A stretch of 63,576 nucleotides of DNA, the filler included, from Hausera hauseri (lineage: Eukaryota), in NCBI GenBank assembly GCA_046269625.1. It is 10 parts of 10 records of this genome, joined end to end, with 100 filler letters (N's around TTAATTAATTAA, not from the genome) between each part and the next. Parts side by side here need not be neighbours in the genome. Positions count along the whole stretch, not along the records: positions 33,738 to 40,597 come from JBJURY010057774.1; 9 more parts are not named here. One strand, given 5' to 3'. The translations under genes were made by a program, and so were the position numbers. The notes under the pieces were generated by a model that did not search any database, was not told the DNA's origin, and saw nothing but the letters and a program-made list of their open reading frames with translations. Numbering within the stretch: the first letter of the stretch is position 1; the number at the start of each line of letters is the position of its first letter. Shown one piece after another: positions 36,545-37,950 of this stretch.

Positions 36545-37950
36545 TATTTTATCATATGGGTCTACAGGGTTCTCCAATTCCTTTAGTTCCCATTCTGAGT
36601 TTTTATGACCCTTAGAATAACAGTTTTTGGTGACTAATCGAAAAATCGCAATTAGTATAATGCGAACAAATGTTGACAGTACCGTGATAGATACGATTGG
36701 TAGTGTAGTTAGTCCCATCGGTACTTGTGTGGTGACCAGAGTTGTGATCCCCTCATCTATATCCTCATATGTATGGGATTCTGTGCGAATCTCATTTAAA
36801 GTTTGCTATGTAATGGTCTAATTTTGCTTATTTTCCGCACATATCTGTACTATATATTCGGCTTGTGGTTTTAATAAATTGCATTCTGTTTGATAAGTAT
36901 TTTTAAATAATGTCACCAGGTGATTATTATACGTTGTCCGACAACTTATATATATATTGTAATTTTGTTTCTCTTCCACAAAGAACACTATCTTAAATCA
37001 ATATGCCGAATATTTAATAGGGATACTTCTTAATTCTCTTTTAGGCACACTAGCCGATGTAATGATTGACATAATGGTACTAATTTGAGTAGCTGGTCTC
37101 CTGGTGGTCGTCGTTACTGAAATTTCCCAATTTCTATTTTCTGGATAGTAAGTTCTCAACTGTATAATTGGTTTATTCGGCCGTACTTCATATAAGTCAA
37201 ATCTTATTCTGAACTATAGGTTTACGGGTATTTCACAGCATGGTTTTTGCACGCCTGCTCGAATAGAACAATATTCTATCTTCGGAGTTGGTCCAACTGT
37301 TGCTTCAAACGTGATACTAATTTCCTGACTGAACGTTAATCCTGTTCTAGAGTCTACTTGAATGCACTGTTTGTCCTTATTCACAGAGATTCTATGAATA
37401 TTTTCGTCTAGTATTCTTATCTCTGGGTCAGTGGATCGTAAGATTTCATTCAGTTTTACTCTTTGATGTCTGTTCCATGCAGGAATGACTAATTGAGAAT
37501 GTGATTTCACTTCAACGTAAACGTCAGTTGAGTATGGCAAGTATAGACGGTAGGTGAGGTTATAAGTGCGTCCAAAGTCTATATCGCAACACTGCGTATT
37601 TTCTCCAGGCTCAAAATCGCAATTTTTCGTTCCTCTTGTGGTTGTATCAAGTAAGACAATTTGAAATCTTCCGAAATCGTAATGCGGTTTCCAAGCTTTA
37701 AATCCAACACATACGGAGTTTGGTGAATAGTAATGAATCGTCATTGATTGCAGTAATTTAGTGTCTACTTGTTTTTGAACTTCTGCTGTTGGCTTCTTTT
37801 TCGTCTTGGTAGTTTCCGATTTCAATCCACTCTTCCGAATTCCGTATATATCTCCTAACGATTATTCATCGTGCCACCATTGGGCTTGTGTTCTTGGGAG
37901 GTAGGAGGCAATTAACGATAATACTAAGACTACCTGAACGTATGCTATTG
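36545..37950 (-). pseudogene. Type I membrane protein: signal peptide, Cys-containing ectodomain, Thr-rich linker, FN3 domain, TM
   Basis: Signal IAYVQVVLVLSLIASYLPRTQA lies in frame after the integrase C-terminus. FN3 signature CNLLKPQAEYIVQICAEN at about 36822-36886; TM LPIVSITVLSTFVRIILIAIF at about 36631-36703. Confidence 0.7.

Follow-up and report, generated by a model that had tools for sequence, protein, structure and literature searches.

Both the placement of env before pol and the presence of non-env cargo after pol have precedents in LTR retrotransposons (PMC13524379; PMC6431247; PMC5408684). In Burro (GYPSM1), a giant gypsy-like element of planarians, the env resembles mononegavirus fusion proteins and lies in frame between gag and pol, as described in the main text of a review (PMC6431247). 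The GAG-ENV-POL errantiviruses of Platyhelminthes, Nematoda and Bryozoa likewise carry an env of the HSV/gB type before pol (Chary and Hayashi, PMC13524379). For the bdelloid rotifer LTR elements Juno and Vesta, the available text describes families without a canonical env, and non-env cargo in ORF3, such as a DEDDy exonuclease and small TM ORFs (PMC5408684).

Then, could such an element also carry a receptor-like surface protein? A sequence-only reading of a genomic stretch from Hausera hauseri suggested that a membrane protein resembling a receptor or an adhesin occupies the env slot behind the integrase, and the FN3 fold, the TM helix and the purifying selection described below support this suggestion. 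The locus holds a real, selected, receptor-like cargo gene, and its product, with three predicted FN3 domains in a type I protein, is a new addition to a known kind of element.

The element is similar to each of the above systems in part. Like Burro, the elements studied have RING cargo, accessory ORFs and coding that stays in one frame over long distances, and a sister element on another contig has a mononegavirus-like env between upstream ORFs and the protease (PMC6431247). Like the GAG-ENV-POL errantiviruses, it has a Ty3/gypsy pol and, in the sister element, a gB-type env before pol (PMC13524379); like Juno and Vesta, it has a non-fusogen ORF in the env slot (PMC5408684). However, an FN3 or post-integrase membrane protein is not named for Burro in the review, the main text of which does not contain the word "fibronectin" (PMC6431247). 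For the errantiviruses, a second post-integrase membrane protein is not mentioned in the text, and neither "fibronectin" nor "FN3" occurs in the main text or the supplement text (PMC13524379). In Juno and Vesta, the TM ORF3s measure about 220 aa, have two TM regions and carry an RXXR site, and FN3 is absent from their description ("fibronectin" occurs zero times in the available text; PMC5408684). In the literature searched, no FN3 cargo in an LTR retrotransposon was found; the original Burro paper, Repbase, subscription papers and bioRxiv supplements lie outside this scope and could describe one.

The element and its membrane-protein gene

The window, that is, the whole stretch of 63,576 nucleotides analysed here (assembly GCA_046269625.1), consists of ten separate contigs joined by linkers of the form N44-TTAATTAATTAA-N44, and therefore adjacency across a linker does not mean adjacency in the genome. 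The membrane-protein ORF is located on the minus strand of the contig at 33738-40597 (6860 bases), whose start is inside the RT. The pol of this contig, with RT, RNase H and integrase interrupted by stops and frameshifts, is of a decayed Ty3/gypsy type. The features of the contig are listed below, where P0003 denotes an intact relative introduced in the next section and the slash marks the putative cleavage site.

39906-40481, minus strand: reverse transcriptase, partial and decayed (Pfam RVT_1, E 5.4e-36)
39297-39902, minus strand: RNase H of pol (Pfam RT_RNaseH_2, E 6.7e-33)
38398-39030, minus strand: integrase zinc-binding and core domains (Pfam rve, E 3.2e-12; Integrase_H2C2, E 2.7e-7)
37958-38437, minus strand: integrase C-terminal part (GPY motif, KRYNLRQRE), in frame with the membrane-protein ORF across a stop-free junction
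37880-37957, minus strand: predicted cleavable signal peptide with basic n-region, hydrophobic core and PRTQA/Q c-region
37757-37879, minus strand: charged N-terminal stalk (helix 42-73 in the P0003 model), containing stop 1 (37862-37864)
37484-37756, minus strand: predicted FN3-like domain 1, four conserved Cys including CC, the Cys being common to P0003
37124-37402, minus strand: predicted FN3-like domain 2, duplicate of domain 1 within the protein, with four conserved Cys, containing stop 2 (37214-37216)
37022-37123, minus strand: Ser/Thr-rich linker (TTTT), poorly conserved and predicted disordered (pLDDT 21-24)
36797-37021, minus strand: predicted FN3 domain 3 with the tyrosine-corner motif LKPQAEY, containing stops 3-5 (36998-37000, 36818-36820, 36806-36808)
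36626-36712, minus strand: predicted transmembrane helix (19-residue Kyte-Doolittle peak; helix 430-464 in the P0003 model)
36539-36625, minus strand: short cytoplasmic tail with juxtamembrane Cys and C-terminal Y-x-x-I-T, then TGA
35254-36538, minus strand: accessory ORF pieces further downstream, among them a DEDD-exonuclease-like stretch at 35254-35898 (Pfam RNase_T, E 0.041, under the cut-off)
34097-34588, minus strand: accessory ORF with terminal RING finger (Pfam zf-RING_2, E 7.5e-7)

The order PR-RT-RH-IN of Ty3/gypsy (Metaviridae) pol is found by Pfam as RT-RH-IN on this contig and as PR-RT-RH on the sister contig. The integrase C-terminal part carries what we take to be the GPY/F module. 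Its tail KRYNLRQR (37975-38000, minus strand) resembles YNLRPR, the nucleosome-binding motif of foamy-virus Gag, and by analogy the tail may be a chromatin tether for integration. Behind the FN3 gene, a repeated SR(L/I)(S/R)ID motif occurs within the broken ORFs (34097-36538, minus strand), and the first acidic motif is apparently missing, by eye, from the DEDD-exonuclease-like part.

On the minus strand, no stop separates the integrase C-terminus (GRGPYEV ... KRYNLRQRE) from the hydrophobic stretch behind it, as had been noticed from the sequence; this stretch ends in PRTQA/Q. About 440 further codons follow without a frameshift up to the TGA at 36539-36541, beyond the end at 36545 given earlier, so that the ORF comprises about 470 codons in total. 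The TAA at 37862-37864 is indeed in frame with the ORF at 37214-37861; it is, however, not the single stop, and five in-frame stops are present. Nevertheless, the openness of the frame is beyond chance: the five stops in 467 codons compare with a mean of 33.3 in shuffled sequences, none of 5000 shuffles has five or fewer, and the remaining five frames over the same 467 codons contain 26-36 stops each. In the window copy, no in-frame ATG occurs between the integrase and the signal, and a simple pattern revealed no splice-acceptor-like site in the 350 bases before the signal.

The signal was called from hydropathy and conservation, and its cleavage site is placed by the (-3,-1) rule. The Kyte-Doolittle peak of the signal is 2.75 over 11 residues and 1.97 over 19 residues. 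Only the signal and the TM stretch (2.48) exceed 1.6 over 19 residues in the window sequence, and the hydropathy prediction of an N-terminal hydrophobic signal with a single C-terminal TM peak is that of a type I protein. In P0003 and P0004, a second relative, the corresponding TM peaks are 2.26 and 2.95, and all three sequences have in common the juxtamembrane Cys and the C-terminal Y-x-x-I-T.

The two CC blocks, the TTTT linker, LLKPQAEYIVQICAEN and the TM stretch are all found on the minus strand where the sequence-only reading had placed them. It had counted one FN3 motif apart from the two blocks; the blocks are present, and they are themselves predicted to be FN3, giving three domains instead of one. 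Domains 1 and 2 align with a score of 75 (z 10.7; none of 1000 shuffles as high), and both show the pattern Cys, Cys, Cys-Cys. The tyrosine corner L-x-P-x-x-x-Y is present in domain 3 of all three sequences and absent from domains 1 and 2. Ser and Thr make up 12 of the 36 linker residues in the window and 14 of 41 in P0003, while N-glycosylation sequons number one and four, respectively.

Pfam identified no family in the read-through protein. The fn3 profile reached E 0.094 on domain 3 and E 0.12 in a second search, in both cases under the cut-off; since these scores of 13.4 and 13 bits are below the gathering score of 25 bits, the protein is termed FN3-like by fold and not a Pfam fn3 member. 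No Pfam fusion-protein match to the ORF was obtained, the predicted fold being FN3 and not that of a fusogen, and no furin site (R-x-[KR]-R) was found in the membrane protein.

Other contigs of the window have features of their own. At 31953-33238 (plus strand; hDGE_amylase E 4e-12, hGDE_central E 8e-20), broken and intron-free pieces of a gene for glycogen debranching enzyme lie amid unrelated sequence, and they may be retro-captured host gene cargo. Two related gypsy copies within 13652-23900 show 85-90% similarity at a distance of 7.4 kb from each other, and in the second copy the 3' part is inverted; between two gypsy copies lies an intact 414-codon ORF (19064-20305, plus strand), without a useful Pfam match, which by eye resembles a DENN-domain protein. 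The ORF at 60125-60802 (plus strand) belongs to a different element type; it has an HTH and, at E 0.007, the first part of an rva_4 integrase core.

Relatives, predicted fold and selection among copies

When 1.84 billion representatives were scanned in full with HMMER, two relatives were retrieved, P0003 and P0004; each is a singleton on one contig, and both may stem from the same organism or a related one. P0003 is intact with 479 aa (E 3.9e-78, 37% identical, query 1-446), while P0004 is a fragment of 189 aa (E 3.4e-36, 49% identical). The window has 11 of the 12 Cys of P0003, and the signal is the best-conserved part, with 17 of 23 residues identical compared to 37% overall. Other searches returned little. 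Word-index homologue searches gave none from 2327 candidates, none from 391, and P0003 alone from 5712; they are weak, since a relative at 37% was missed or barely reached. PDB sequence searches gave kelch-design noise and tenascin-R at E 0.68, PHROGs gave none of five, and no related locus was found in the viral, metagenome or prokaryote contigs searched.

The closest integrases retrieved are 28-39% identical to that of the contig. In ten such integrase-related loci, tblastn did not find the FN3 protein, and most of them have another env-like ORF after the integrase. For example, L001, L003, L004 and L008 are gypsy elements with 35-39% integrase identity, in which a chromodomain-like tail and an env-like ORF after the integrase can be recognised by eye, and L003 and L004 also have, by eye, a short RING-like ORF at the end.

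The structure of P0003 was predicted with AlphaFold2 from a three-sequence alignment (mean pLDDT 54.6, pTM 0.26, domain blocks about 52-80); the single-sequence model of the window read-through, with a mean pLDDT of 38.0, is too poor for use. The P0003 model comprises a helical stalk, seven-strand domains at 76-161, 191-282 and 328-398, a disordered S/T linker and a TM helix. Because P0003 is predicted to fold into three FN3 domains plus a TM helix, the CC blocks are read as a duplicated Cys-rich FN3 pair. In a Foldseek search of the PDB, the best 10 matches of the model are all tandem-FN3 fragments, with 6xay at the top (E 1.7e-10). By VIA-align, domain 1 (P0003 74-163) matches the monobody 9y5y_B with Z 9.2 (rmsd 3.0, 87 aligned), and domain 3 (P0003 321-401) matches IFNAR2 D2, 3s8w_A, with Z 9.3 (rmsd 2.4, 76 aligned). 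Domains 1-2 together (P0003 72-286) match Tie2 Fn2-3, Pikachurin and Robo3 with Z 8.2 over 171-172 aligned residues, and the large rmsd of 10.4-11.8 is what an uncertain hinge would be expected to give. These Z values are only slightly above those of common arrangements, and the list is nearly all FN3. The FN3 fold and the TM helix expected from the sequence are both found in the model, the latter also as a hydropathy peak, and a protein of three FN3 domains plus a TM helix is a prediction that we hold with high confidence.

The generic nature of the FN3 fold weighs against a specific reading: at 6-16% identity, the structural matches range over fibronectin, contactin, gp130, Tie2, IFNAR2, ROS1 and phage tail proteins. 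In predicted domain fold and single-pass topology, the protein is similar to fibronectin 10-12, contactin FN1-3, gp130 D4-6, Tie2 FNIIIa-c and IFNAR2 D2. Unlike the tandem-FN3 cell-surface proteins, with which identity is 6-16%, it has a CC-bearing duplicated pair, lacks WSxWS, RGD and, by eye, the strand-B tryptophan, and ends in a tail of about 27 residues. P0003 has no Pfam fn3 match, its matches in a viral library, with E values of 1e-6 or weaker, are FN3 proteins of a generic kind, and the nearest named Atlas clusters are FN3 single-pass proteins at 0.85-0.87, which is below 0.9 and only a lead.

P0003 also bears on how the protein is expressed. It has methionines ahead of the signal, and its upstream stretch is unlike the integrase tail of the window; consequently, the fusion to the integrase, which stands for the window copy, is possibly not general. 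In the active family, the same protein could instead come from a gene of its own, with a start that follows an integrase stop, or could also be started internally, in which case the fusion would be an accident of decay in a copy that has private changes at a few percent of its sites. However, the window junction lacks both a stop and an in-frame ATG, the chance loss of both at a few percent divergence being about 1 in 100 by our estimate, the signal is unusually conserved, and no difference that brings a stop or an ATG to the junction is among the 40 of 2088 differences listed. Burro, moreover, is a very long in-frame polyprotein as reviewed (PMC6431247). We consider expression as a stand-alone gene unlikely; what weight it has comes from the methionines and the different upstream stretch of P0003, and from the small share (40 of 2088) of differences from other copies that was listed.

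Is the gene maintained in other copies of the element? Copies were taken from contigs of two public runs (X1 and X2), from two studies with two organism labels, X1 being possibly the sample from which the window derives. The contig at 33738-40597 has 18,893 and 1,329 matching pieces in the two runs, mostly at 80-95% identity, and therefore the element family is abundant and diverse. At stops 1-5, the share of depth that differs from the window is 96, 85, 95, 99 and 100% in X1 (23, 21, 55, 15 and 10 contigs) and 100, 88, 100, 100 and 100% in X2 (9, 4, 5, 3 and 4 contigs). As judged by eye, every difference listed at the five stops abolishes the stop, while at the second stop up to about 15% of the X1 depth may retain one. 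The five stops are thus mostly private to the window copy. No indel with a share of at least 30% was found among the copies within 36770-37260. Among the 12 of 27 indels of at least 10% that were listed, a 3-base insertion within the ORF occurs in two contigs and a 1-base deletion at 37635 occurs in five X1 contigs (13% of depth), the latter indicating that other copies are decaying too.

The selection test is a rough one, based on 40 of 67 differences, chosen by the tool and weighted by depth, from 36770-37260 only, domain 1 lying outside this range. After removal of the six inside stop codons, 34 differences in sense codons were left, 20 of which are at third positions (p 0.002). Differences with an X1 share below 0.9 were taken as polymorphic among other copies, and those at 0.9 or above as mostly private to the window. 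Among the former, 15 of 22 are synonymous against a neutral fraction of 0.28 (p 1e-4, rough dN/dS 0.18); among the latter, only 4 of 12 are (rough dN/dS 0.78), as expected after the death of a copy. The purifying selection that the sequence-only reading called for is found among the copies, and the extra gene appears to be kept by selection. It should be noted that contig depth is unable to rank the parts of the gene, and consequently depth profiles were set aside as evidence. In one X1 contig, the TM region follows directly on the integrase end (36652-38002, 1349 bases skipped; side 29, weak), and this contig is possibly a derivative without the FN3 ectodomain.

The window copy is a pseudogene, which by itself would suit a neutral passenger, that is, a captured host FN3 fragment or a chance open frame. 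Such a reading is very improbable and is largely refuted by the synonymous excess among copies, the private stops, the intact 37% relative, which keeps the Cys, the signal, the TM and the tail, and the frame, as open as which none of the 5000 shuffles was. We are very confident that the membrane-protein gene is real and conserved.

A fusogen on a sister element

The sequence-only reading had also placed a fusogen upstream of the membrane protein. No fusogen is seen on the contig at 33738-40597, which starts within the RT; the one found is part of a different copy, on the opposite strand of the contig at 1-7523:

2697-4489, plus strand: broken Monjiviricetes-type fusogen gene, on the contig at 1-7523, physically unlinked to the FN3 gene

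Three pieces of this contig match PF24664 (E 3.3e-18, 2.9e-9 and 1.4e-19), and we take this fusogen to be gB-like and of class III. The label also leans on the text available for the GAG-ENV-POL errantiviruses (PMC13524379). The order on the contig is upstream ORFs, fusogen, protease, RT and RNase H, and it ends before the integrase. Its RT is 88% identical to that of the FN3-bearing contig over 190 aa, compared to 21-40% for the RTs of three other window contigs, and the DNA identity is 74% over 1584 bases; judged by these identities, it is a sister element and not the same copy.

Long helical ORFs are present ahead of the fusogen (580-2693, plus strand), including a helical domain of 190 aa at 2124-2693. 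Giant gypsy elements of the Burro kind are characterised by ubiquitin/SUMO-like and BCL2-like domains ahead of env, a dUTPase-like domain between PR and RT, more than 25 kb of length, and BIR, ankyrin and MATH domains. Before the env of the sister element there is a ubiquitin-like match (1771-2010, plus strand), which is weak at E 0.12, as is polyubiquitin at E 0.44. Pfam and further searches gave no BCL2 match in the ORFs before the fusogen, and Pfam gave no dUTPase match in the PR-RT spacer of about 175 aa. Since the ubiquitin-like match is only weak and neither BCL2 nor dUTPase was seen, the element is named Burro-like and not Burro.

On the basis of the sister element and the known layout of Burro and the GAG-ENV-POL errantiviruses, the family with the FN3 gene probably also carries an upstream fusogen, although no contig or read was found that joins the FN3 ORF to one. 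The lack of a fusogen on the FN3-bearing contig would also suit a subfamily without one, in which the FN3 protein is the sole membrane protein and holds cells together for direct capsid passage. Envelope-independent spread from cell to cell via a small TM protein is described for Drosophila in the available text of PMC11952523. However, the nearest RT in the window belongs to the fusogen-bearing element, and the FN3 protein is unlike a small FAST-type fusogen in size and predicted fold, which makes adhesion independent of a fusogen quite improbable.

Possible role of the FN3 protein

Our preferred reading, with a probability of about 0.4, is that a Burro-like element carries the FN3 protein as an accessory type I membrane protein, which likely acts in attachment beside a separate fusogen. 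The pol frame would be translated through the integrase, with the FN3 protein as the C-terminal end of the product. The internal signal would direct it to the ER, where host signal peptidase would cut at TQA/Q and release a type I glycoprotein. The juxtamembrane Cys, possibly palmitoylated, and the terminal YxxI would bring it to membrane sites of budding or cell contact; palmitoylatable Cys and YxxI have sorting roles in viral and lysosomal membrane proteins. The FN3 domains would then bind a surface molecule of the target cell, while fusion would be left to the gB-like fusogen, whose gene would lie between gag and pol like that of the sister element and that of Burro.

Viral entry in two parts is familiar from herpesviruses, in which gB works with gD and gH/gL, and from paramyxoviruses, in which F works with H, HN or G. 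The proposed split between attachment protein and fusogen is alike, and the analogy is functional only: the attachment proteins of these viruses have Ig-like or beta-propeller folds, not tandem FN3. Several class III fusogens, such as rhabdovirus G and GP64, bind receptors without a partner, which counts against the reading as an attachment partner.

Alternatively, the protein may not serve particle attachment at all, and may modulate the host from the surface of the producing cell as a receptor mimic, decoy or superinfection blocker. The Cys-rich FN3 pair followed by a membrane-proximal FN3 recalls the ectodomains of cytokine receptors, IFNAR2 D2, IL-22R1, gp130 and IL-11R are among the matches, and the conserved tail tyrosine is a possible signalling site. 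The RING and exonuclease-like cargo of the element also favours host modulation, and Burro, as reviewed, is rich in host-meddling domains (PMC6431247). However, WSxWS is absent from the window, P0003 and P0004, and the cytokine-receptor matches tie with non-receptor FN3 matches (Z within 1). WSxWS is the motif of class I cytokine receptors. In addition, no host FN3 donor gene was found among the 1.84 billion representatives, and the retained TM speaks against a secreted decoy. Taken together, we regard host modulation as rather unlikely.

If the attachment reading holds, the element may represent a giant Ty3/gypsy lineage with two-part entry, in which a gB-like fusogen encoded between gag and pol is combined with a dedicated three-FN3 attachment glycoprotein that signal peptidase releases from the integrase end. 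This wider proposal is doubtful. If true, it would be a division of labour in the style of herpesviruses or paramyxoviruses that is undescribed for LTR retrotransposons in the literature searched.

For invertebrate env-bearing retrotransposons, the fusogens have been catalogued, while the receptors and attachment modules mostly have not. The cargo list of Burro-like elements gains a membrane protein with just two relatives among 1.84 billion representatives, and the intact P0003 ectodomain could be used as a ligand bait. The place left by env is taken by a conserved, receptor-like FN3 protein, which is a candidate for determining tropism or for manipulating the host.
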